A stretch of DNA of 64,000 nucleotides from Amphiura filiformis (GCF_039555335.1 NC_092633.1:21100334-21164333); one strand, 5' to 3'. Shown: positions 9,860-64,000, numbered from the stretch's first letter. Numbers and translations are program-made. The notes: generated by a model not told the origin, from the sequence alone.

Positions 9860-11020
9860 ATATCAGAAAAGAGGTGGTGTTCTCAATTACACGTATTCAG
9901 GCCAGTAAATATGGTGAATCCAGAGATTTACTAACTAGTCATATCTCGGTTTAATACAGCAAAGAGTAAGACGCCCAGACCATCTCATTTTGCTAATTTC
10001 AATATTGCTGGTGTGTTTTAAATATTACTAATGCATGTCACCGCTATTACAGGCTTTAATATAATAGGTATGATATCGTCTGCGATCGATATAACAGTGT
10101 AATAACATTACATATTTTTTAGAATAACTAAAAACAACCTCTTTTTAGCTCCTGAAGTCTTGTAACATTTCCGCTGTCACAATGTTATAAAAATTAATTT
10201 GGCCAGAATGAAAATGCACTTAAAAGCAAAGTAATAAAAAACCTATTGAAACTTGAAAAATAGACTCTTGACGGAAATGCAAACTGTATGAAATTTTAAA
10301 CGTAATTGCCTTGGGGTGATATCAATTTCAATATCTATCTAGACGTGAAGCTATGTCCAGAGCAAGGTCTCGTGTAGATAACTGAATATCGTGTGGGCAG
10401 CACATAAAGCTTCAATTGCTAAGAGACGCATCGACTTAACATCGATTTCGTTTATGGTGTTACAAAGTGGCGTGGTTTGGTTGTGACTTGGCAATTGGAG
10501 CAATAACAAGCATATGCTATTGGCCTCTGGCTATGTCATCATGTCCTAGTTACAGATAACCAATTATACAGGCCTCAGGATGTCAACAAACTACTCAATA
10601 GCAAAATTAACACTAGCGAAACATTGAACACCTTTTACATGGTTCATCAATACTAAATATATGAGCAGAAAAGAATTACATGAACTTATTTTAATGTTGT
10701 AAAATCAATTCTACTTGTTGTTACGCTTTATGAAAGACTTCGTGTTTATATTCACTCACGTAAGCGACCAAAGGTTCTTGGTACGTCTCTGGGATACCAC
10801 TGCACCATATGAGTATAGATATGATAACTTACAGCACTAATGAAAATACTTGTGACATACTCAAAATAACATTTTACATCGAGCTTTTAGATGATGGTAT
10901 CCTCATTATGGAAATTGGTATCGACTCCTCTTCCCACAAGATGTTGATTTAATATGCAGGTTGCTTGGTTCTATGGCTAATAAAGCAGTTGAGGACCCAC
11001 TCAACTTATAATTTGTCCCT
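9860..11020 (+). repeat. About 1.2-kb interspersed repeat family, class unknown (copy in macro-repeat 1)
   Basis: Homologous to 24890-25620, 35120-36545 and 41051-41760. Shared strings include ggtgttctcaatt, cttgaaaaatagactcttgacg and ggctatgtcatcatgtcctagttacagataac. Confidence 0.6.
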
Positions 11021-19023: not shown

Positions 19024-19713
19024 TTACATATTTATAGAGTTCCATCTTTTATTCCATTCATACATTTTACCTTTATTGTTTGCAATGTGTTTTTCAGTCT
19101 CGGCGACAGTATTAAGCATACCTTTAAAACCTTGTATGTCCAGCTTATTTTTATTACATCTTGCATTATAAATAAACTTTTTCCCCTGAAGAACAACAAA
19201 ATTATAATGACAATAATCAACATCTAATATGCCCAACAGAACATCCTTCATGGTAAGAGTAACTCTTTTTTTAAAGATATTATCTTGAACCTTCTTCCAA
19301 AATTGAGCAGAAGTACCACATTGCCAAAATAAATGTGGGATATTTTCTAACTCCTGATTACAAAAAGTACAAAGATTTGAATCAACATAACCATATTTAA
19401 ATAGATTTTCATTTATACCTATAATTCTATGCAGAATTTTGAATTGAAAATACCTAAGTTTGGTTGATAGGGAGGAAGACAAGGAAATCCTGTAAATATC
19501 GTTCCAATTTAAATTCATATCATCAAAAAAGACAGCCCATTTGGCCTCGGCTTTGGGCGCAGTTAAACAACTTGTCAACGCAAATTTTGTGAACCAATTT
19601 GCAGACCTTCTTAGAGGAACAGATAAGAGCAAGCATATCATCATGATCATTCTGAACAGTTCCCAAGTCTTCCCCCCTCTCGACACTTCTGATCCATACA
19701 TTTGGAATGGCAT
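19024..19713 (-). pseudogene. L1-like ORF2 C-terminal region with Cys-rich motif and stop codon (copy B)
   Basis: ORF ends 19024. The ~130-bp 3'UTR then runs to the poly(A) at 18892. Confidence 0.7.
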
Positions 19714-21009
19714 AGATTAGAGCAAAATATTCCAGAAAGTTACATTGTAAATTATACTTGGTCTTCAAGATATCAAGGGGAAGAAAACTATCATCTTCAT
19801 TTAAAATATCAGAAATAAATTTAATACCTTTCTCATGCCAGACTTTTTTGTAAACAGTGTTTTGGGCGATAACAATAGATGAATTATTCCATAATATTTG
19901 ATGTCTAAAATGACTTGAAGGAGAATCATAAGTAATTGTACACCAAGCGTTGAGAATTTCACCAATAAACACATTCTTAATAAGCTTAATACATTTCTCC
20001 TCTGGTTTAGTGTTAAAAAAACAAAAAAGATTACCACCAATCTGTTTCATATAAAACATATAAAAACATTTCCATTTACCATTGTTGTTCACATCCAAGA
20101 GACGTTTAACCCAAGCCACTTTAAGCCCATTAATAACTGAGGGAATGTGAACCATCTTGAGGCCCCCTTTCTCATAGTCACCAATGATGGACTTTCTGCT
20201 GAGCTTATCTGGTTTTCCTGACCAAATAAATTTAAATATTATCGAGTCAACCTCCTTCAAAAAATTATCAGGTGGTTTAGGTAAAACAGAAAACAGAAAA
20301 ATTAATTGAGAAAGACCCAAGGATTTAACAATTGTAATTTTACCAATTGGACTTAAATCTCTCATCGACCAAATTCGCAAGATTTCCTTGAGTTTTTTGG
20401 AACGAAATTTAATTCAAAAATATTGCTCAGATCAGAACTAAAAACTACACCCAAAAGACGAACAGGATTGGCAGTAAAATGTAAATCATCATTGTTTAAA
20501 TCAGGAGGATTATCCTTAAACAAACCTAAAGGGAGTAACTCAGATTTATCCAAGTTAATTTTCAAGCCAGAATAAATTTGGAAAGTCTCAAGAATGTGAA
20601 CAACTCTGTGAAGGAGCCAACATCCTTTAAGTAAATAGTGGTATCATCCGCATAAGCACTAATAATAATTTCAGTATTCTCAACCATGATACCTTTAACA
20701 CTATTATCATTTCTGATGGCCAAATTCAAAATCTCACTACTAATTATATAAAGCAGCGGACTAAGTGGACAACCTTGACGAAGTCCACAAAACAATTAAA
20801 AAAATCAGAAGCATGTCCATTGTTCATAACACACGAGGTAATATCTGTATAGAAAACTTTCACCCAATTAATCAAATCATCACCAAAATTAAACAATTTT
20901 AATGCCCTAAACACAAAGGACCATTCAAGTTTGTCGAATGCCTTTTCAAAATCAATTAAAAACATAATACCAACAAAATTATTTTCTGTGCAACCTGATC
21001 ATTGGGTTT

Positions 21010-22714
21010 GAAGTACCACATTGCCAAAATAAATGTGGGATATTTTCTAACTCCTGATTACAAAAAGTACAAAGATTTGAATCAACATAACCATATTTAA
21101 ATAGATTTTCATTTATACCTATAATTCTATGCAGAATTTTGAATTGAAAATACCTAAGTTTGGTTGATAGGGAGGAAGACAAGGGAATCCTGTAAATATC
21201 GTTCCAATTTAAATTCATATCATCAAAAAAGACAGCCCATTTGGCCTCGGCTTTGGGCGTCTTAAACAACTTGTCAACGCAAATTTTGTGAACCAATTTG
21301 CAGACCTTCTTAGAGGAACAGATAAGAGCAAGCATATCATCATGATCATTCTGAACAGTTCCCAAGTCTTCCCCCCTCTCGACACTTCTGATCCATACAT
21401 TTGGAATGGCATAGATTAGAGCAAAATATTCCAGAAAGTTACATTGTAAATTATACTTGGTCTTCAAGATATCAAGGGGAAGAAAACTATCATCTTCATT
21501 TAAAATATCAGAAATAAATTTAATACCTTTCTCATGCCAGACTTTTTTGTAAACAGTGTTTTGGGCGATAACAATAGATGAATTATTCCATAATATTTGA
21601 TGTCTAAAATGACTTGAAGGAGAATCATAAGTAATTGTACACCAAGCGTTGAGAATTTCACCAATAAACACATTCTTAATATTAAAGCTTAATACATTTC
21701 TCCTCTGGTTTAGGGTTACATTCCCAAAAAAGATTACCACCAATCTGTTTCATATAAAACATATAAAAACATTTCCATTTACCATTGTTGTTCACATCCA
21801 AGAGACGTTTAACCCAAGCCACTTTAAGCCCATTAATAACTGAGGGAATGTGAACCATCTTGAGGCCCCCTTTCTCATAGTCACCAATGATGGACTTTCT
21901 GCTGAGCTTATCTGGTTTTCCTGACCAAATAAATTTAAATATTATCGAGTCAACCTCCTTCAAAAAATTATCAGGTGGTTTAGGTAAAACAGAAAACAGA
22001 AAAATTAATTGAGAAAGACCCAAGGATTTAACAATTGTAATTTTACCAATTGGACTTAAATCTCTCATCGACCAAATTCGCAAGATTTCCTTGAGTTTTT
22101 TGGAACGAAATTTAATTCAAAAATATTGCTCAGATCAGAACTAAAAACTACACCCAAAAGACGAACAGGATTGGCAGTAAAATGTAAATCATCATTGTTT
22201 AAATCAGGAGGATTATCCTTAAACAAACCTAAAGGGAGTAACTCAGATTTATCCAAGTTAATTTTCAAGCCAGAATAAATTTGGAAAGTCTCAAGAATGT
22301 GAACAACTCTGTGAAGGGAGCCAACATCCTTTAAGTAAATAGTGGTATCATCCGCATAAGCACTAATAATAATTTCAGTATTCTCAACCATGATACCTTT
22401 AACACTATTATCATTTCTGATGGCCAAATTCAAAATCTCACTACTAATTATATAAAGCAGCGGACTAAGTGGACAACCTTGACGAAGTCCACAAAACAAT
22501 TTTAAAAAATCAGAAGCATGTCCATTGTTCATAACACACGAGGTAATATCTGTATAGAAAACTTTCACCCAATTAATCAAATCATCACCAAAATTAAACA
22601 ATTTTAATGCCCTAAACACAAAGGACCATTCAAGTTTGTCGAATGCCTTTTCAAAATCAATTAAAAACATAATACCAACAAAATTATTTTCTGTGCAACC
22701 TGACCATTGGGTTT
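21010..22714 (-). repeat. Tandem duplicate of 19309-21009 (LINE 5' part plus TSD plus 15 bp of upstream flank)
   Basis: The junction at 20983-21011 reads ttctgtgcaacctgatcattgggttt|gaagtaccac. That is the TSD plus flank joined to internal LINE sequence (= 19309), with a 2-bp 'ga' microhomology. The two units are near-identical. Confidence 0.7.
22065..22670 (-). pseudogene. L1-like ORF2 reverse-transcriptase fragment (copy A)
   Basis: 201-aa ORF with FIDFEKAFD, RQGCPLSPLLY and YADDTTIY. The equivalent region in copy B (20362-20965) is broken into three frames by homopolymer indels. Confidence 0.8.
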
Positions 22715-24889: not shown

Positions 24890-25620
24890 ACTCTTCAGAA
24901 GAGTCGGACTAACAAGAAAAGATATGGTGTTCTCAATTGCTCGTATTCAGGCCAGTTAATAATATGGTGAATCCAGGGATTTACTAATTCGCCATATCTC
25001 GGTTTAATACAGATCATCTAACTTGTTAAATTCCAAATCGGTGGTGTGTTTTTAATGTTACTGATGCATATCACCGCTAATACCGGCCTTAATATTGTAG
25101 TTAAGAAAAAAAGAGTCCCTACATGACAGCGATCGATATCAATGCAAAATTGCATATTTTAAGAATAAAAAAACAAACTTAAATATATAAGCAACCTCTT
25201 TCCCGCTCCTTAGGTCTTCTAACATTTCCCGCAGTAAAATGTCACAATGCTTATAACATGAATTTTGCCAGAATGAAAATGCACCTAAAATAAACACAAA
25301 ATAGACTCTTGACGATAAAAGCAAACTGTGTGAAATTTGAAACATAATTACTCTGGGCTAATATCAATTTCAATCTATCTGGACATGCAGCTACGTCCAT
25401 GTCAATGTCTCGTGTAGATGACTGAATATCGTGTGGGCAGTACATAAGTTTCATTTGCTTAGTGCTGCATCGATCTAACGTTTCGTTTATGGTGTTACAA
25501 ACTGGCGTGGTTTAGTTGTGTGACTCGGCATTTGTCGCAATAAACCATGATAACAAGCATGTGCTATTGGCTTCTGGCTATGTCATCATGTCCTAGTTAC
25601 AAATAACCCATTATACAGGT
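24890..25620 (+). repeat. About 1.2-kb repeat family copy, 3' truncated at the copy2/copy3 junction
   Basis: See 9860-11020. Confidence 0.6.
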
Positions 25621-25974
25621 CTCAGTTTCAATAAATTCACCTGTTAATCAAGCCGCAAACTCGGTTATAATGCACTTTGTATTAATCTTTGGCACTACTT
25701 AAGCTACTATGATATTGAAAACTTAATTTCTTTTATGATATCTGTAGTTCATTTCGAAAGTATACATCGTGTGAAACAAACGACACTTTTGACGGTTATA
25801 AAGTAGCAATAAACTTACAAAGTTGTTTTATTATACTGACAGATAATATTGCGTATGTATTTCAAAGAGGATTTTACTTTTAAAATATATGACAGGGTAT
25901 AATGGCAGCGTATGTGTCGCTAAATTGCTACAGAGTACTGTTACGTACAAAAAAATGGACAGATACACGAACCT

Positions 25975-35119: not shown

Positions 35120-36545
35120 GTAGAGACAACCCTCTTCAGAAGTGTCCGCATCAGACCTACCAGAAAAGACGTGGTGTTCTCAATTTACTTGTTCAGACTG
35201 GTTAAATAGATTGACTAATTCGCTATATCCCGATTTAATACAGCAGTGACACCCAGATCATCTAATTTGTTAACTTCAAAAACAGTGGTGTGTTTTTAAT
35301 GTTACTGATGCAAGTCACCGCTAATATAGGCTTTAAAGTTATGGTATCATAGTTAAGAAGATAAAATCAAGACAGCGGGTCTTTACAGGACAATAAACGA
35401 TAAAATGTAACATATTTTTAGAGTAACATAATCAACTGAAACATAAGGAACCTCTTGTAAATTGTCACAATCAAAATGAATTACGGCTACAATGGAAAGG
35501 CACTTAAAAGCAGTTGATACTTGAAAAATAGACTTCTGACGATAAATACTAAACTGCATGAAATTTTAAATGTAATTGCCCGGAGTAATATCAATTTAAA
35601 TATCTATATATGGACGTGAAGCTTCGTCCAGACCAAGGTCTCGTGTGGATGGCTGAATAACGTGTGGGCAGTGCATAAAGCTTCAATTGCTTTGAGCCGC
35701 TTTGACTTAACATCGATTTCGTTTATGGTGTTACAAAGTGGCGTGGTTTGGTTGTGTGACTCGGCATTTGGAGCAATAACAAGCATGTGCTATTGGCTTC
35801 TGGCTATGTCATCATGTCCTAGTTACAAATAACCAATTATACAGGCCTCAGGATGTCAACAGACTACTCAATAGCAATATTACCATTCTCCAACATTGAA
35901 TACCTTTTTACATGGCTCATCAATACTGAATATATAAGCTGAACAAACACCTACACGAACTTATTTTCAATGTTACAAAATCGATTCTACTTGTTGTTAC
36001 GCTTTATAGAAGACTCCATGACCAAAGGGTCCGAGGTACCCCTCTGGAAAACCACTTTCCCAGTTGCGTATGCTTATGAACGGGTGCAGATTCATATGAC
36101 AAAACATCAACGAACATTCTTAACATCAAGCTTTTTGGCCGATGGCTTCCTCATTATGACGATTGGTATCATTTGCTTTTCCCACATGATGTTGTTCTTA
36201 CATCTGCAGGTTGCTTGGTTCTAATAAAAATGATCATCTAATTTGTTAACTTCAAAATCACAGGTATGTTACCACTAAATATAGGCTTTAAAGTTTTTAA
36301 GCAGAACAAGACAGCTGGGTCCCTGCAAGACAGCGATCGATAACAATGTAACACATAATTTTATAATAACAAAATCAACTGAAATATAATTAACTTCTTT
36401 TCAGCTCTTGAGGTCTTCCAGCAGTAACTGTTAAAAGGCTTATAACAATGAATTTAGCTAGAATAAAAATGCACTTAAAAGCAAAGAAATAAAGACCCTG
36501 TTGAAACTTGAAAAATAGACTTTTGACGATAAATGTAAACTGTAT
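35120..36545 (+). repeat. About 1.2-kb repeat family copy, split by the L2 insertion (left part)
   Basis: Homology to 9860-10290 ends exactly at 36545 (aaactgtat) and resumes at 41051 (cgtatgaaattttaaac). Confidence 0.65.
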
Positions 36546-36995
36546 AATAATAATAATACAATAATACATGGGATTTATAAAGCGCCCTACGATGTAAAAA
36601 CAGCCTCAAGGCGCTGCACAGAATCTTAAAAACTACATACACTAATACAATATCAACTAGGGCCTACATGCTAAAACAAAATAGTATACATGAAAAATAA
36701 GCATGATAAACTCATTATACACACCATAATATACTAAAACATAAAATAATGTACAAGTTACACAATCAATAAAATACCGTAAGCTTGACCAGCAAACTAC
36801 TGGTATATAAAATTAGTCTACACTCTGAAGACACAAGTTTAAAAAGTAGCAAAATGAATAAGATTAAAAACGCTTTAAAAAGGCAGTATTTGCACAAACC
36901 ACATGCCATCTTATTTCACACTTCTAAAAACAATATAATTCAGAACCTTGCAGAAATGAAATTGCACAACTGAAATGAGATGACGATCATATTGT

Positions 36996-37301
36996 CTAAC
37001 AAGATACATTGAAAAGATGAGTTTTGAGTCCTTTTTTGAAAGAGTTTATGTTTGATACTGAACGAAGCTTGAAAGGCAACTTGTTCCATACCTTTGGTGC
37101 AGCTGCGGCAAATGATCTTTCGCCGTAGAACTTGGTTTTACACTTCTTTGGAGCGCGTGTACAAAGGAGAGCTTGTGAAGCCGATCGTAGAGTCCGCTGT
37201 GGCTTATACTCCTCAATAAGATCGCTAATATATCTAGGAGCCAACCCGTGCAATGCCTTATAGGTAAGCAATGCAATCTTGTATACAATCCGCTGTTGCA
37301 C
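36996..37301 (-). CDS. L2 ORF2 extreme C-terminus, displaced into another frame by a frameshift
   Basis: ALLTYKALHGLAPRYISDLIEEYKPQRTLRSAS...APKVWNKLPFKLR...FKKGLKTHLF is the canonical L2 tail. Confidence 0.8.
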   Translation of the reverse strand: MQQRIVYKIALLTYKALHGLAPRYISDLIEEYKPQRTLRSASQALLCTRAPKKCKTKFYGERSFAAAAPKVWNKLPFKLRSVSNINSFKKGLKTHLFNVSC

Positions 37302-38434
37302 GGGAAGCCAATGGAGGGCTCTAAGACTGCAGGCTTCATGTGCTCATCCTTTCTGCACTTGGTAACGAGGCGCGCCGCAGTGTTCTGCACTCTCTGTAAC
37401 TTTGCGATTTCATTTTCTTGAAGTCCGTACAAAACAGCATTACATGAGTCTAAACGCGAGGATACAAATGCATGTACCAACCTCTCCACAGATGACTTGT
37501 CAAGATAGCGACGCAGCTTTCCAATACGGTAGATTGCAAAAGAGGCTGCACGGACAACACTCTTAACATGGTCTTTCATGTCCATAGATGAATCGAAGAT
37601 GACGCCGAGATTCCTTGCGACCCGCGATACCTCAATTTCAGATGTATCAATGGTGAGTTTGGGAAAGGATGGAGTTTTCACAAATTTTGAACTTATGTGA
37701 ACCACCTCAGTTTTTGAGTCATTCAAGACAAGCCTGTTTCTGATTGTCCATGCTTTGATGTCGCGAAGACAGAGTTCTAGTCTCGGGATGGCGAAATTGC
37801 GTTCACTTGGGTGAAGAAGCATGTACAGCTGCGTATCATCAGCATATGTCATGAAGTTGATGTTATGGGCGTTAATAACATCACCGATGGGGGCTGAGAA
37901 CAGAGTACACAAAAGGGGACCATTGACCGAGCCTTGAGGGACCCCGTCATTAAGGTCGAGACTGTCCGATAATTCTCCATTGATAACAACCGACTGAGAT
38001 CTGTTTTGAAGATATGACTCATACCATTTCAGTGCCGTTCCTGTTATGCCGTAGCGTTCACGCAGACGTTGAAGTAAAGCTGGGTGGGAAAGCGTATCAA
38101 ACGCTGCGGAAAAGTCTAGAAGTACTAAGACAGCTTCAAGATGTTGGTCAGCGGCGTTGAGAATGTCATTGTGAATTCTGGTGAGTGCAGTCTCTGTGGA
38201 ATGGAATTTCCGGTAGGCAGATAGATTAGGAGCGTAGAGATCATTTGCAACAAGATAGTCTGATAGTTGTGCTGCAGAAACTCGTTCAATTGTCTTTGAT
38301 AAGAACTTCAAGTTTGAAATTGGCCGGTAATTCTTCAGCTCATTTCGGTCAGAGTTCGCTTTCTTTAAAAGTGGAGTCACTTTGGAGACACATTGACGAT
38401 GTTGGTTATCTATGGCAGCAGTGGATCCAAACAT
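37046..38434 (-). CDS. L2-type ORF2 reverse-transcriptase domain
   Basis: 462 aa with YRPISNL, AYRKFHSTETAL, LLDFSAAFDTLSH, GVPQGSVNGPLL, YADDTQLY, LNDSKTE, LVHAFVSSRLDSCNAVLYGL and LQRVQNTAARLV. These are diagnostic CR1/L2-clade motifs. Confidence 0.9.
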   Translation of the reverse strand: MFGSTAAIDNQHRQCVSKVTPLLKKANSDRNELKNYRPISNLKFLSKTIERVSAAQLSDYLVANDLYAPNLSAYRKFHSTETALTRIHNDILNAADQHLEAVLVLLDFSAAFDTLSHPALLQRLRERYGITGTALKWYESYLQNRSQSVVINGELSDSLDLNDGVPQGSVNGPLLCTLFSAPIGDVINAHNINFMTYADDTQLYMLLHPSERNFAIPRLELCLRDIKAWTIRNRLVLNDSKTEVVHISSKFVKTPSFPKLTIDTSEIEVSRVARNLGVIFDSSMDMKDHVKSVVRAASFAIYRIGKLRRYLDKSSVERLVHAFVSSRLDSCNAVLYGLQENEIAKLQRVQNTAARLVTKCRKDEHMKPAVLEPSIGFPCNSGLYTRLHCLPIRHCTGWLLDILAILLRSISHSGLYDRLHKLSFVHALQRSVKPSSTAKDHLPQLHQRYGTSCLSSFVQYQT

Positions 38435-40131
38435 TTCTTCAAAAGACTAGTTGGAATTGGATCCAATGGACAGGACTTTGTAGATGATTTCAACACAATC
38501 TGGCAAACATCCTCATCTGATACCTCACGAAATGCAGTGAACTCACTCTCACACGAATCAGTTATATCAACAGATAGTCCAGGTGGATTAATGTTGTCAA
38601 GCGTATCTAACAGTCTTTTCACTTTCTTCTTGAAGAATTCTCCAAAGCCATTCGCGAGATCTTTGCAACATGAGTGGTCAGGAAGCACACTTGACGAGGA
38701 GGACTTGCTCAATTTGTTGACAATCTTGAACAGTTGGCGGTCATCACATTGACTGATTTGTGCACGGTGGTATTCACATTTTGCTCCTTCAAGTTGTTTG
38801 CGATATTCTTGGCAGTGTTGGACATACAGCTGGTGATCCACTTCCAAACCAGATTTTAACCATTTACGCTCACATTTTCGCTTTTCACGCTTATATGATC
38901 GTAGCTTGTCATCATACCAGGGGGCATTAGGTCTGTGCACTATTGTCCGAGTTCTCATAGGGGCATGGGAATCAAGCAAGCTGGAGAGCACATGTTCATA
39001 TCGGTCAACTAGAATGGAAGGATCGCCATCGAGATGATCAAATTTGCTTTCAGATGAACCAAGGGTCGACGATGTAATGTCAGTTTTAAACTGTTCCAGA
39101 TCAATACTTCGTAGGTTCCGCGAGCAAACTTCAACTTTTACAGGAGCTGGTCTTTGCACATCCATAAGACATTTCAATGGTTTATGGTCTGATGGAAGAC
39201 CATTCAAAATGGCCACACCAGAGATAAGCTCATCAGATGAACGCGAGATAATAACATCCAATGTGTGACCGTCCTTGTGCGTTGGACCATGGACATGTTG
39301 ACAGAGTCCACATGAATCTAAGAGATCCATAAATGCAGTCGCTTTGCGATCAGAGGAATCATCAAGATGGAAGTTCATATCACCGGTGATCAAAAGATGG
39401 CCCGGGGCAATGGTCAAAGTTTCCAAACGCTGGGAAAACTCTGTCATGAACATTTTCACTGTAAGTTTGTTTTCAGTTGATGGTGGTGGGCGGTAGATGA
39501 TGACCAACCTGATTGATGAGGATCCATTTGACAACAGTACATCGAGATATTCGAATGACTGGAAGATATGAATGTCATTGAGTCTAACATTGAATCCCCT
39601 ATGAACAATCAAACAGACGCCGCCGCCTCTGCGGTTTACACGAGGAGCATGGTGAATGGCGAAATGGGGCAGAGTGTTGATAATATCTGCAAGAGGAACT
39701 TCATCACGATCGTCTCCATCCAGCCATGATTCAGTAACGGCTAGAACATCAAGTTTCTGATCAATTATAAAGTCAGCAATAGACGCCGTTTTCTTTTTAA
39801 TTGAACGCGCATTCCATGATCCGAGACAGGCTTTTGGCAATGATTTTGTCTTTTTTGGTTTCTGTCCAGCTCCGACTGGGGCTGCAGGTAGTTCAACAAG
39901 ATAGCGCCGCCGCGAAGGCGGTGGTTTCAAATCAAATGGCTTGGGCGTGATATGAACTTCGATTTTGCGTCCTTTCCCCTTTCCTCCACGGCAACCTCGT
40001 CTTGTTTTTCTGGCAATACCAAGGTTGCTCAACGTAGTCCAGATAGATGGTTCAATATTATAACAATGTTGTTGATCACACCTTTTGTTCAGATTAAGTA
40101 GGATATCCTCACTGTATATTCGTGGAGGCAT
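38410..40131 (-). CDS. L2-type ORF2 N-terminal part: apurinic-like endonuclease (APE) domain plus linker
   Basis: 573 aa with LDVLAVTESWL, GGGVCLIVHRGF, LITGDMNFHLD and SDHKPLKC (the EEP/APE catalytic motifs). It overlaps the next ORF by 25 nt in another frame, which indicates a frameshift. Confidence 0.85.
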   Translation of the reverse strand: MPPRIYSEDILLNLNKRCDQQHCYNIEPSIWTTLSNLGIARKTRRGCRGGKGKGRKIEVHITPKPFDLKPPPSRRRYLVELPAAPVGAGQKPKKTKSLPKACLGSWNARSIKKKTASIADFIIDQKLDVLAVTESWLDGDDRDEVPLADIINTLPHFAIHHAPRVNRRGGGVCLIVHRGFNVRLNDIHIFQSFEYLDVLLSNGSSSIRLVIIYRPPPSTENKLTVKMFMTEFSQRLETLTIAPGHLLITGDMNFHLDDSSDRKATAFMDLLDSCGLCQHVHGPTHKDGHTLDVIISRSSDELISGVAILNGLPSDHKPLKCLMDVQRPAPVKVEVCSRNLRSIDLEQFKTDITSSTLGSSESKFDHLDGDPSILVDRYEHVLSSLLDSHAPMRTRTIVHRPNAPWYDDKLRSYKREKRKCERKWLKSGLEVDHQLYVQHCQEYRKQLEGAKCEYHRAQISQCDDRQLFKIVNKLSKSSSSSVLPDHSCCKDLANGFGEFFKKKVKRLLDTLDNINPPGLSVDITDSCESEFTAFREVSDEDVCQIVLKSSTKSCPLDPIPTSLLKKCLDPLLP

Positions 40132-41050
40132 AGTGTGAAAAAGTTAAAGTACAATAAACTGTCAATGCACTATGTTAGAGAATTGCTTCCAAATTCTGCA
40201 TTTGTATAATACACAAGAGATAACGCTGATCGTCAGACAGGGTCTAATTCTGCATAAAACCGGGCAACGTTATTTCTATAGATCTGCTGCGCATTCAAAT
40301 TGCATTGTATTGCATCGTAATTTCATTTGTGTCTATGCTAATTATGTTTACACAACATGAACTCACGTGTTTTCAAGCAAATTCGCCGATGATAGGTGAT
40401 CAAAAGCGATCGGAATGTTACAAAAGTACAGATCGCATTCAGTTTACTTCATATGAGATGATCTTTGGAAAAATACGGCATAATTTGTCTTGGTGTTTGC
40501 GGAATGCCATGCAGTAAAATATTAATACGTTGCGGCAATTCATGATTGACAACTAACAATCGGCGTGTCCTTCGTATCCTCCACTGTCAATTTCTTATCC
40601 ACTCACTAATCCTCACAAAAGCTTTGTGTTGATTACGTAATGTGTGGAGGCAAATTGCAATAAGTACAATGAAATAATGAGTAGGGCGGGCTCCGAGGCG
40701 GGTTTCTTCTTCATCTTACGTAACAGTATTGTTCTCCAAAAATACCCGGAAGCTTGTCGTTTGGAGCTCTAGCTGAAATACAGCAAGATAATGTAAGATA
40801 GTAAATGTAAACCTGTATTTTAGCTAGAGTATCTCGAGCTACTGATCATTGAGATTCAAAAATAAGACAAAATAGCACAATTGCTGATTCCAAAAATTCA
40901 ATCAAGTTCTGTTATCCATTATAAAATGTACTCACGCAATTCCTATATTGACGAAAAATACACAAAAACGGCTTTAAAATATCAAATTTGATGAAACATT
41001 TACAGAGCGAAAGTGACATGCAGCCAATCATCAAAGAGGGCGCTATCTAA

Positions 41051-41760
41051 CGTATGAAATTTTAAACATAATTGCCCTGGGGTAATATCAATTTCGATAT
41101 CTATATCTGGACATGAACCTGCGTCCATGGCAAGGTTTTGTGTAACGTGTGGGTAGACATACAGCTTCAGTTGCGTAGAACCGCATCGACTTATATCGAT
41201 TTCGTTTAAGATGTTACAAAGTGGCGTGGTTTTGGTTGTGACTTAGCATTTGGAGCAATAACAATATTGGATTCAGGCTATGTCATCATGTCCTAGTAAC
41301 AGATAACCAATTATTCAGGCCTCATGCAGGATGTCAACAAACTACTCAATAGCAACATTAACACTTGCGAAACATTGAGTACCTTTTACATGGCTCATTA
41401 ATGCTAAATATACAAGCTGAAAAAACAGCTACATGAGCTTTATTTACAATGTTGCAAAATTATTTTTATACGCTTTATGAAAGACTTCGGGTTTATATTC
41501 ACTTACGTAAGTGACCAAAAGTTCTAGGTACGTACGTCACTGGAAAACCACTGCCCCAGATAAAGCATACTTATGAAAACTTACTGCACTGAATTCATAT
41601 GGCAGCCTAAAAACAACATTTTACATCAAGCTTTTGGATGATGACTTCCTCATTGTGGCAATTGATATCCACTGATTTTCCCACAAGATGTTGGTCTTTT
41701 GTATATCTGTACCTTGCTTGGTTCTATGATATGCTAATGCAGTTGAGGCTGGTTTGTGCC
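41051..41760 (+). repeat. About 1.2-kb repeat family copy, right part after the L2 insertion
   Basis: Matches 10290-11020. Confidence 0.65.
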
Positions 41761-42062: not shown

Positions 42063-42190
42063 TCCATGTGCTTAGAGGTTAATAACTGCGCATCGGTTAT
42101 TTGGAGGGCATTGTGAAAAATCTAAACATTTTGTTTAGATTTTTCACAATGCCCGACATATAACCGATGCAAAGTTATTAACCTCATTCA
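42063..42190. repeat. Perfect 54-bp-arm hairpin (palindrome)
   Basis: gaggttaataactgcgcatcggttatttggagggcattgtgaaaaatctaaaca is the exact reverse complement of tgtttagatttttcacaatgcccgacatataaccgatgcaaagttattaacctc. Confidence 0.7.
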
Positions 42191-42520: not shown

Positions 42521-44877
42521 ATATGATTGGATCTCACGCATCGCGTTTATTAATGAGGTTATGAATTGTTTTTAATCACTCGTCTTTTCTTTCTTTTACT
42601 AATGCGGTACTTGCGGCCCATTTGAAAGGTTAATTCCGGTTTAATAGACCGGTCAATTAAGTAATCTCAATATAACGTGTAGTAAGTGAATAATTAAATA
42701 TTGTATCAATGAAAATTAAATACTAATATATGTATATTAACTATTATACTGAGGTAATTATATAAATGAATATGGTTAAAAGTGTATTCTTACACATACA
42801 CTCCCTAAACTAGTGTCCCAAGAAGAGGTTGTATTGTACCAAGATGCTTTAAAGGCCCGTTCACAGATTTGGTCATTGGGAGGATCATAAAAATCATAAA
42901 AAATCAAGTTTTGGAACCTTTGTTAGTGTCCTGTACCGCCTGGAAAGATGTACCGGATATAGTCTGGATAATATAATAAAATATTGATCATTTTATTCAT
43001 ATTCTGTTTAATCATAAAGCATTCTCGCTTACTTCCATTGTTTAATGCATAATTCTAAATGTGCATATTATGTTCTGTTTAATGCATATATCGTGTTTTA
43101 ATGTACCACTTATATTTCAAGAGAAGACGGCGAACTTACTCTCATTGAGAAGATATCATTATGAGCGAACCAAATCTTCCGTAATGATAAATAGGGAAAC
43201 TCATGCTGTTTGTTGTGGAGAGTTAAGATTGCCTTCTATCTCCATATCTCTTTAATCAATTTCTTCCTCGAATTGGTCGTGAGTGGAGTACAAAACCGCG
43301 GCTTTGGAATCCAAGTGGAGGGCGATGAAAATCAACAACATCCGTAATGCTAATGACAAAGCCCTAATGGAAATGGTCTTCGAAAAGTTACAGCTATCCA
43401 CAGATATACTGGATAAAGTATGCGTCAAAACTAGGGAATGAAGATCAACCCAACTATAAACTGCAAACTCGTGATGACAGAAGACCTACGAGATATCACC
43501 TTTAACCAGGCGCCCGCGCCCATTGACAAAGTGATTGACTGTCTTCCTTAGTACTATAGTAACTTTCAATCAGTTAAGAAGAATATCAAGAGCCGTACTA
43601 TCTGGACCAAGTACCAATTATGACATCATAAGACCACTTAAAATGAGAATTTACCTGTCTCTTGCCACCTATATGGAACAGCGACGAGGGTGTACCTCGG
43701 TCTGCCAAAAACTATAATAAGAAATGATGAACTTATACAGGTCTTAACATCCCAAGCACTATCACAGAAGTAATTACCAGAAGTCTATTTAAAAGGGTTT
43801 GGATGGACAGGTTCCCAAACCAAGCCTAATGTAAGACTTTAGTTCTAGTAGGGGTAAGCAACCAGGATGTCCTCAAATAAAATGGTAGACTAGATCACAA
43901 TGGACACAGAGGCATGGATCTCTAACAGACCCAATATCAGGCAACGGGAAGACAATGATTATCTGGCAGGTGACAATGGGACACTCTGTTCTAATCAGCT
44001 AAGTCTTAAGTCAAGAGATAGCGGTGATATGAACACAACAATATTCATGCAAACACAATATCTTGATAAGAATCTCCAAAGAATTACTTACACGTATTCA
44101 ATAATTTTAAAGTTTAAAACCTTTGATCCAAACACAAGAAAGTTATTTCTCCCTCTCGGAATTTCCAGATGCTTTATACTCCATCTTTCATCAGCGAGAA
44201 TGAGATTGTGATTCATTATAATAAAACATCGGTCTTATTTATAACCTGAAATGAATTTCCATCATCCTCAATCAAGTGCACTTCTATCGACCTTTAGAGA
44301 TAGTTCTTGCTTAATGGGTTTGTTTAAAGTAGGTGTAGATTATGTAATTCATTATGTAACCGACCGTTGTAAACCCCTTCATATAGCAACGATCTTGTAT
44401 TGCCGGCGCCTTTCAAGACTAATGAAGCTTCCAATGACACTTAAAGTAGGTCATTTTGACCATGTTGACAGAATTTAAGGATCTCTACAGACTCCGAGTT
44501 ATCGACGTGGAATATTCGATGTAATATGAATTCGTTATATGTTTTAATACTATTTCCATTCTATTTTCAGTCATCTTTAAAAGGGCATTTCGTGATCCAC
44601 AGCCTCATCCTCCACTTTTCTCAAATTTTTTTTATACCACTGGAAACCTCTGGCTACATAATATTTACGGTACCCAAAAATTTCTTCCAGATTAATTCTG
44701 GTATACCAGAACGAAATTACAACAGTGGCGCGGCCTATGGAGCAGTGTAATACACATAATCAAGCATAACTCGCAAACGCAAAATCGGAATTAACTGAAA
44801 TTTTGGGAGTAAGCTGGATATCTACTGAAAAATGTCATAAAAAGAGGATGCTAGGATCACGAAATCCTCCTTTAAGT

Positions 44878-63793: not shown

Positions 63794-64000
63794 ATCGCCT
63801 TGATCGAAGGATGAAATGTAAAAATTTGTCACTTTTGAAAGGAGGAACAGTAGCGGGCCGAGGACTGTGGCCTGGGGCACACCTGATAAAACTTTGGCTG
63901 ATGTAGAACGTTCTTCTTCAAGAACAACTGTCTGCGAGCGTGATTTAATGTAAGGAACCCTGAGATCCAGTAAATATTTCCAGTAATACCAAAATGTCTC

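Follow-up and report, generated by a model that had tools for sequence, protein, structure and literature searches.

Results

A 4.5-kb non-LTR retrotransposon in the Amphiura filiformis window

The window, by which we mean the whole 64,000-nucleotide stretch of the Amphiura filiformis genome analysed here (GCF_039555335.1 NC_092633.1:21100334-21164333; positions are counted from its first letter), contains on its minus strand a retrotransposon without long terminal repeats (a non-LTR retrotransposon) of 4,505 bp at 36546-41050. We read this insertion, with a probability of about 0.88, as a full-length but defective copy of a stringent-type long interspersed nuclear element (LINE) of the L2 lineage that has a single open reading frame (ORF). 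Minus-strand ORFs lie in three successive frames at 38410-40131 (573 amino acids), 37046-38434 (462 amino acids) and 36996-37301 (101 amino acids). The first of these matches Exo_endo_phos over residues 104-316 (E=1.1e-13) and also Exo_endo_phos_2 (E=3.8e-08), and the second matches the reverse transcriptase (RT) domain RVT_1 over residues 27-253 (E=1.6e-29). These were the only Pfam matches in the element, with neither an RNase H nor a restriction-like endonuclease domain among them. The translations contain the motifs YRPISNL, FDTLSH, YADDTQLY, LVHAFVSSRLDSCNAVLYGL, LQRVQNTAARLV, KALHGLAPRYISDLI and LKTHLF. The original prediction, an unaided reading of the sequence, had already given the ORF and domain coordinates, the three successive frames and a set of motifs; the ORF list and the Pfam search reproduced the former, and every quoted motif was found in the translations. 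The ORF has a G+C content of ~44% against ~35% in the flanks and 34.8% in the whole window; the value for the A. filiformis genome is 36.67% (PMC11310086).

The encoded protein begins with a conserved N-terminal segment of ~100 amino acids (MPPxIYSED...RRGCRGGK), after which come the endonuclease, a basic linker, the RT domain and a conserved C-terminal region (LHWLPV...KALHGLAP...LWNxLP...LKTHLF). The start codon and the MPPxIYSED segment are kept in an intact relative (P0069, described below) and in more distant homologues. C-terminal LHWLP and LKTHLF motifs are typical of L2 elements. The Trp in KVWNKLP lies ~245 residues past the YADD aspartates, like D689 and W934 of the zebrafish element ZfL2-2, a likeness in residue spacing only; W934 is the C-terminal Trp common to L2 and CR1 (PMC4176376). 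A full-text literature search for the peptides LKTHLF, YADDTQL, LHWLPV and NYRPISNL matched no papers.

No ORF1 was found upstream, where all sense ORFs wholly inside the 5' untranslated region (UTR) are of 40 amino acids or fewer, and in four relatives no sense gene is called in the stretch of 138-825 nt that precedes the ORF in the available sequence. With the relatives alike in this respect, the single-ORF layout looks like a feature of the lineage and not a product of decay. Loss of ORF1 by decay was rejected on these grounds together with the nearly intact state of ORF2. Both the absence of ORF1 and a long 5'UTR of ~0.9 kb had been predicted, and the latter measures 919 nt. Within it, 21-30 nt from the element's 5' end, is an inverted CCAAT box, for which a role in the promoter is conjecture. 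The features of the element and its surroundings are collected in Table 1.

Table 1. Positions in the window of the features of the retrotransposon, its lesions and its insertion site.
Feature	Position	Strand	Basis
5'UTR, 919 nt, with inverted CCAAT box TGATTGGCTG at 41021-41030	40132..41050	-	Inside the insertion by empty-site alignment
ORF, first frame, 573 codons: conserved N-terminal ~100 amino acids, endonuclease, linker with tail-binding region, start of RT N-terminal extension	38413..40131	-	ORF list
Endonuclease domain, apurinic/apyrimidinic type	39184..39822	-	Pfam Exo_endo_phos
Predicted tail-binding region (cTBR + vTBR equivalent), residues 404-451: PWYDDKLRSYKREKRKCERKWLKSGLEV...	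38779..38922	-	Alignment to ZfL2-1 TBR1(369-416)
Lesion 1: in-frame TAG stop codon	38410..38412	-	L001 and L004 read CAT (His) in register
Lesion 2: 37-nt deletion (3n+1), junction 38383/38382	38382..38383	-	37-column gap against L001 and L004
RT domain with NYRPISNL, FDTLSH, YADDTQLY	37676..38356	-	Pfam RVT_1
Lesion 3: 2-nt insertion within GCAG, frame shifted	37327..37330	-	DNA alignment to L001
ORF, C-terminal part, frame 3: ALHWLPVQQRIVYKIALLTYKALHGLAPRYISDLI ... KVWNKLP ... LKTHLFNVSC, stop	36996..37318	-	Full-length alignment to intact relatives
3'UTR, 450 nt, from TAG stop (36996-36998) to insertion end	36546..36995	-	Translation and empty-site boundaries
3'-tail stem-loop: AGCGCCUUG ... 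UAGGGCGCU with inner hairpin, then UAUAAAU	36572..36625	-	Folding and covariation
3'-terminal microsatellite TGTATTATTGTATTATTATTATT, (ATT)n	36546..36568	-	TRF: period 3 and period 8 arrays
Target-site duplication, 3'-side copy, GTAT (+), ATAC on element strand	36542..36545	.	Empty-site alignment
Target-site duplication, 5'-side copy, GTAT (+)	41052..41055	.	Empty-site alignment
One extra base at 5' junction: C on +, G on element strand	41051	-	Not in empty-site paralogues
Interrupted host repeat, left part	36224..36545	.	Flank match to paralogue 10136-10289
Interrupted host repeat, right part	41051..41748	.	Flank match to paralogue 10286-10994

The element interrupts an older host repeat

The insertion could be delimited against copies of the repeat that it interrupts. 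In a self-BLAST of the window, the left flank (36392-36545) matches 10136-10289 at 81% identity and the right flank (41052-41748) matches 10286-10994 at 78.5%, both flanks being colinear with one uninterrupted paralogue at 10136-10994. The closest empty-site paralogue reads AAACT-GTAT-GAAATT at the insertion site and the interrupted copy reads AAACT-GTAT-[element]-C-GTAT-GAAATT; three uninterrupted paralogues carry a single GT(A/G)T (or GCAT) there. From these alignments we conclude that the insertion extends from 36546 to 41050 and is accompanied by a 4-bp duplication and one extra base. What had been noted beforehand as a possible short duplication around 'gtat' is therefore a 4-bp GTAT duplication. 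The clean split of a host repeat, also noted beforehand, is borne out by the colinear flanks, with the qualification that the repeat unit measures ~1.0-1.1 kb and not ~1.2 kb.

For the surplus base at the 5' junction there are two readings: it was added without a template, or the element begins with it; extra G residues at full-length LINEs' 5' junctions may be untemplated or cap-derived. At the opposite end, the AT with which the duplication begins on the element strand may equally well belong to the (ATT)n tail, in which case it would represent microhomology at the priming site. The interrupted copy of the host repeat stands in direct tandem with another at 35158-36223, and further copies are present at 9861-10994 and 24891-25625. 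Identity among the copies is only 70-81%, so that they long predate the LINE insertion. The ~1.1-kb repeat is unclassified: it lacks a tRNA-like head and any obvious coding capacity and has no match in Rfam; scans of the whole window with Rfam at the gathering threshold and for tRNAs gave no matches.

Three lesions inactivate the ORF

Lesions in the ORF were mapped by protein alignment to eight homologues and to the intact 1,052-amino acid protein P0069, and by DNA alignment to two related loci, L001 and L004. The in-frame stop codon occupies a position that is a variable sense position in the alignment of the eight homologues. The 37-nt deletion takes out 12-13 conserved residues of the 'SLxSGxxPxxLKxA' segment just upstream of VTPLLKK and appears in the protein alignments as a 13-residue gap relative to all eight homologues and to P0069. 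At the third lesion, dropping 2 nt gives back KP-x-LRALHWLP, and the protein alignments show one surplus residue at the same place. The ancestral ORF would have had a length of 3,136 + 37 - 2 = 3,171 nt, or 1,056 codons plus a stop, in agreement with the relatives. The rest of the ORF is very well preserved: of the 215 columns outside the deletion at which six or more homologues are invariant, only 7 have a substitution in this copy.

The original prediction had described two single frameshifts; both the DNA and the protein alignments resolve the damage instead into the TAG, the 37-nt deletion and the 2-nt insertion. With these three lesions the copy is unable to encode its protein, and it lacks the uninterrupted endonuclease-RT ORF that an active LINE copy requires. 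They may have arisen after insertion or may have pre-existed in a defective source element that was mobilised in trans.

If the lesions were instead errors of sequencing or assembly, as had been proposed for the supposed frameshifts, the copy would be truly intact and the locus would hold a retrotransposition-competent master element. The good preservation of the remaining ORF, and UTRs, a tail and a duplication that are all undamaged, would fit such an element. The lesions themselves do not: the loss of 37 nt of conserved codons, a nonsense codon where relatives read CAT and a 2-nt insertion in the non-homopolymer sequence GCAG are unlike the common errors of long or short reads, and three independent errors of this kind within 1.1 kb would be improbable. 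Given the types of lesion involved, an intact copy is untenable as an explanation and we set it aside as highly improbable.

Relatives of the element

The defective copy was compared with its relatives through a conceptually repaired protein of 1,044 amino acids. Full-length homologues of 1,039-1,064 amino acids aligned with it end to end at E=0, scores that exclude chance. The closest named protein is an uncharacterised one from the brittle star A. filiformis itself (P0009, XP_072044694.1), which is 73-77% identical over a partial span, and no protein more than 77% identical was present among 5.8 billion clusters. A metagenome scan with the RT/C-terminal protein returned two loci only, of which the better, L004, is 79% identical in amino acids and 66% in nucleotides and, at that level of identity, does not belong to the same family as the window element. 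Outside the LINE, a 109-bp match of 74% identity was observed between window 44744-44846 and L004 427-535 (JAAUXV010221074.1), which could be a shared repeat. A PDB sequence search gave only distant matches to the L1 ORF2p and R2 RTs (E ~1e-6 to 1e-4), which are useless for placing the element in a clade.

A sister family was found in the ENA assembly ERZ25070167 (proteins P0069, P0070 and P0002; loci L008 and L001), with intact ORFs of 1,052 and 1,034 amino acids. P0069, the 1,052-amino acid protein, and the repaired window protein are 70% identical over residues 1-1040, a span that includes the start codon and extends to LKTHLF. The ORFs of the sister family and the window element are 69-70% identical in nucleotides, and no alignment was obtained for the 5'UTR or for most of the 3'UTR, for which reason we treat the sister as a separate family. 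L008 and L001 are 97% identical to each other in nucleotides, and L001 is 5'-truncated. As a candidate for a currently active L2 element, this sister family, which comes from a low-coverage assembly, is better than the window copy.

A second copy of the window element's own family was found neither within the 64 kb of the window by self-BLAST and tblastn, which returned only unrelated RT fragments at 22131-22694 and 63839-63952, nor in the collections searched, a result that says little since these collections appear not to contain the source genome. Look-ups of the exact protein for the 573-amino acid window ORF and for P0009 likewise returned no record.

The linker resembles the tail-binding region of zebrafish L2 elements

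The ORF2 protein of zebrafish L2 elements binds the cognate 3' stem-loop via a tail-binding region (TBR) located between the endonuclease and the RT, and the conserved part of the TBR (cTBR) is common to distantly related L2-clade elements, including L2-2_SP of the sea urchin (PMC4176376). For comparison with the basic linker of the window protein, the TBR1 peptide of ZfL2-1 was rebuilt from primers in the published supplement; it was the only TBR used quantitatively. Residues 404-451 of the window protein align without gaps to ZfL2-1 TBR1(369-416) with identities at 19 of 48 positions. Matches include the P and W, the equivalents of R376, K379, R383, E386, R387 and W389, and then LEV, with K390 left unmatched. 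The equivalents of R376, K379, R383, E386, R387 and W389 are moreover invariant among the homologues in the protein alignment. Binding of the stem-loop by ZfL2-1 requires K379, R383, R387 and K390 (Hayashi et al., 2014; PMC4176376), and equivalents of the first three of these four basic residues are kept in the window TBR. The spacing of the region, P-W-x8-[R/K]-x6-E-x2-W, also fits the residue numbers P324, W325, R334, E341 and W344 of ZfL2-2.

A conserved stem-loop precedes the 3'-terminal repeats

The 3' end of the element carries a stem-loop within its last ~80 nt, followed by UAUAAAUCCCA and a tail of the (ATT)n type, which TRF resolves as predicted. The stem-loop has a minimum free energy of -21.2 kcal/mol (z=-2.48), and none of 200 shuffled sequences was equally stable. 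Five homologous elements (L001, L002, L003, L006 and L007) carry the same module at their 3' ends, as does ZfL2-1, the 3' tails of ZfL2-1 and ZfL2-2 having been reconstructed from published primers. An RNAalifold consensus over seven tails contains 13 pairs, four of them with compensatory double changes; at one covarying pair, for example, four sequences have C-G, two have U-A and one has A-U. The repeats that follow are (ATT)n in L001, L003, L006 and L007, (GTTAT)n in L002 and (TGAAT)n in ZfL2-1. In its tail the element is therefore of the stringent type, having a stem-loop and short tandem repeats and not poly(A).

The ZfL2-1 tail reads UGUG-AGC(U)GCUUUG-loop-AAAAGCGCU-AUACAAAU-repeat and the window tail UGUG-CAGCGCCUUG-loop-UAGGGCGCU-UUAUAAAU-repeat, which amounts to the same architecture and to much of the same sequence. 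Over its last ~90-100 nt the 3'UTR shows 78-79% identity to the sister-family copies, in contrast to its remaining part, which gave no alignment. Such a contrast is the pattern expected of a functional recognition module.

Assignment to the L2 lineage

Four features diagnostic of L2 were found in the element: the combination of apurinic/apyrimidinic endonuclease and RT, the cTBR, the stem-loop with a microsatellite tail and a short target-site duplication. Judged by these sequence features, the element very probably belongs to the L2 lineage. L2-clade duplications peak at 3-5 bp, and extra nucleotides occur at the 5' junction in about half of the genomic copies of ZfL2-2 (Yamaguchi et al., 2014; PMC4245944). 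The 4-bp duplication observed here fits that range, a feature common to CR1 and hence no separator of L2 from CR1. The earlier description of the locus as a nearly intact L2-clade LINE accordingly stands in so far as the element is full-length, lightly damaged, single-ORF and L2-type by the features tested, and falls on the number of lesions.

An alternative placement, which we regard as improbable, is in one of the adjacent clades within the CR1/Jockey group (CR1, Rex1, L2A/L2B, Daphne or Crack) and not in L2 proper. Short duplications and microsatellite tails are common to CR1 and L2, and the labels themselves are fluid, ZfL2-2 being also listed as CR1-2_DR (PMC4245944). Against these points stand the gapless cTBR motif, which is conserved among distant L2-clade LINEs including L2-2_SP, and a 3' stem-loop module that can be aligned with that of ZfL2-1.

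Several considerations weigh against our reading of the insertion as a full-length, defective L2 copy. The clade is assigned from the TBR, from the 3' tail and the length of the duplication, and from the layout of the ORF. Within the TBR, the equivalent of K390 is Leu, with a Lys one position later. With a single copy in place of a family consensus, the extent of the element up to its true 5' end and the time at which the lesions arose are inferred. The 5'UTR has no similarity to that of the sister family, and its promoter role is assumed. Finally, the age estimate given below derives from a single event and has a wide interval.

Other elements in the window and in related contigs

Another non-LTR retrotransposon, not related to the first, occupies 19024-22670 of the window on the minus strand; its RT, which contains YADDTTIY, is only 24% identical to the L2 protein. 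This second element is internally duplicated: the ORFs at 19523-20380 and 21682-22083 start with the same ~120 amino acids, and those at 19024-19713 and 20979-21743 are alike in their C-terminal parts. Near the end of the window, a short RT fragment on the minus strand (63839-63952; ...GVPQATVLGPLLF...) is probably part of another retroelement that continues beyond the window. At 42075-42185, ~1 kb downstream of the interrupted host repeat, a segment of 111 bp is 88% identical to its own reverse complement and forms a palindrome or inverted repeat. Among the relatives, the GCA_029980105.1 contigs with the distant L2 homologues L002 (3713-7616) and L006 (5333-7507) also encode further RT proteins, and a Phage_integrase-domain protein beside an RT in the same contigs resembles a DIRS-like tyrosine-recombinase retroelement.

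Discussion

Comparison with retrotransposition-competent L2 elements

Two L2-clade LINEs of zebrafish are retrotransposition-competent, ZfL2-1 with ORF1 and ORF2 (5.0 kb) and ZfL2-2 with one ORF (~4.2 kb) (PMC4176376). The window element, at 4.5 kb, is like ZfL2-2 (CR1-2_DR) in having one endonuclease-RT ORF and no ORF1, a long 5'UTR, a TBR between the endonuclease and the RT, and a 3' stem-loop with short tandem repeats after it; in ZfL2-2 the 5' junction frequently carries extra nucleotides, and one is present here. It differs from ZfL2-2 in an ~80-amino acid N-terminal extension of the ORF, in a tail that is (ATT)n and not (TGTAA)n-like, and in a longer stem-loop with an inner hairpin. The window copy is also inactivated, and its host is an invertebrate deuterostome and not a fish. 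With ZfL2-1 it shares a short duplication (~5 bp in ZfL2-1, 4 bp here), whereas the presence of ORF1, the length of 5.0 kb and the (TGAAT)n tail of ZfL2-1 set the two apart. Between the zebrafish ZfL2 system and an invertebrate-deuterostome L2, the stem-loop module is common across more than 500 Myr.

On the pattern of the zebrafish elements that have been tested, the insertion can be envisaged as follows. An internal promoter in the long 5'UTR would give rise to an RNA encoding one protein of ~1,056 amino acids, whose basic TBR between the endonuclease and the RT would recognise the 3'-terminal stem-loop of its own RNA. The endonuclease would nick the plus strand at 5'-AAACTGTAT^GAAATT, between GTAT and GAAATT, and the (AUU)n tail might then pair with the nicked end and prime target-primed reverse transcription. 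A second nick 4 bp away would generate the GTAT duplication, and the full-length cDNA would be joined with one extra base at the 5' junction.

Age of the copy and activity of the family

Of random substitutions in this ORF, 3.2-4.5% would create a stop, and from the one stop observed in 3.1 kb the maximum-likelihood divergence since the ORF was intact is 0.7-1.0% (95% confidence interval 0.02-5.6%). If neutral change proceeds here as in A. filiformis generally, at 1.885e-9 per bp per year (PMC11310086), this divergence corresponds to roughly 4-5 Myr and to no more than a few tens of Myr. The observed/expected CpG ratio is 0.84 in the element and 0.73-0.77 in the flanks, a contrast too small to be interpreted as a marker of age. 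The low divergence (~1%) suggests that the family was mobile fairly recently in evolutionary terms. To call the lineage recently active is thus plausible on an evolutionary scale and is not evidence of present activity.

The family could nevertheless be extinct and the window copy a well-preserved relic with no active master left, in which case 'candidate recently active lineage' would be a misleading label. We take this possibility seriously while putting it at somewhat less than even odds. It would account for the lack of a second copy within the 64 kb, for the 77% ceiling on identity among the protein clusters and for the metagenome scan having yielded nothing closer than 79% in amino acids (66% in nucleotides); the upper bound on divergence of ~5% corresponds, moreover, to tens of millions of years at the neutral rate. 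The maximum-likelihood divergence, however, is only ~1%, and the sister family, with its intact ORFs of 1,052 and 1,034 amino acids and two copies that are 97% identical, indicates that the lineage has young members. The missing copies for their part carry little weight when the collections seem to lack the source genome. That the family is still mobile in its host, with an intact master copy of 1,056 codons elsewhere in the genome, is a possibility we hold to be rather doubtful.

Implications

L2 LINEs and L2-dependent short interspersed nuclear elements (SINEs) are already known in echinoderm genomes, SINE/tRNA-Deu-L2 being known in A. filiformis (PMC11310086), and the element described here is an ordinary dead full-length L2 copy. 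Its use lies in providing a clean, datable insertion event for the repeat annotation of the genome. Should the family prove to be mobile, it would represent a single-ORF L2 of an invertebrate deuterostome whose TBR and stem-loop could be compared directly with those of the zebrafish ZfL2 system. The conservation in invertebrate relatives of the TBR motif and the 3' stem-loop of zebrafish L2 elements, the stem-loop with covariation, supports the generality of this recognition mechanism.

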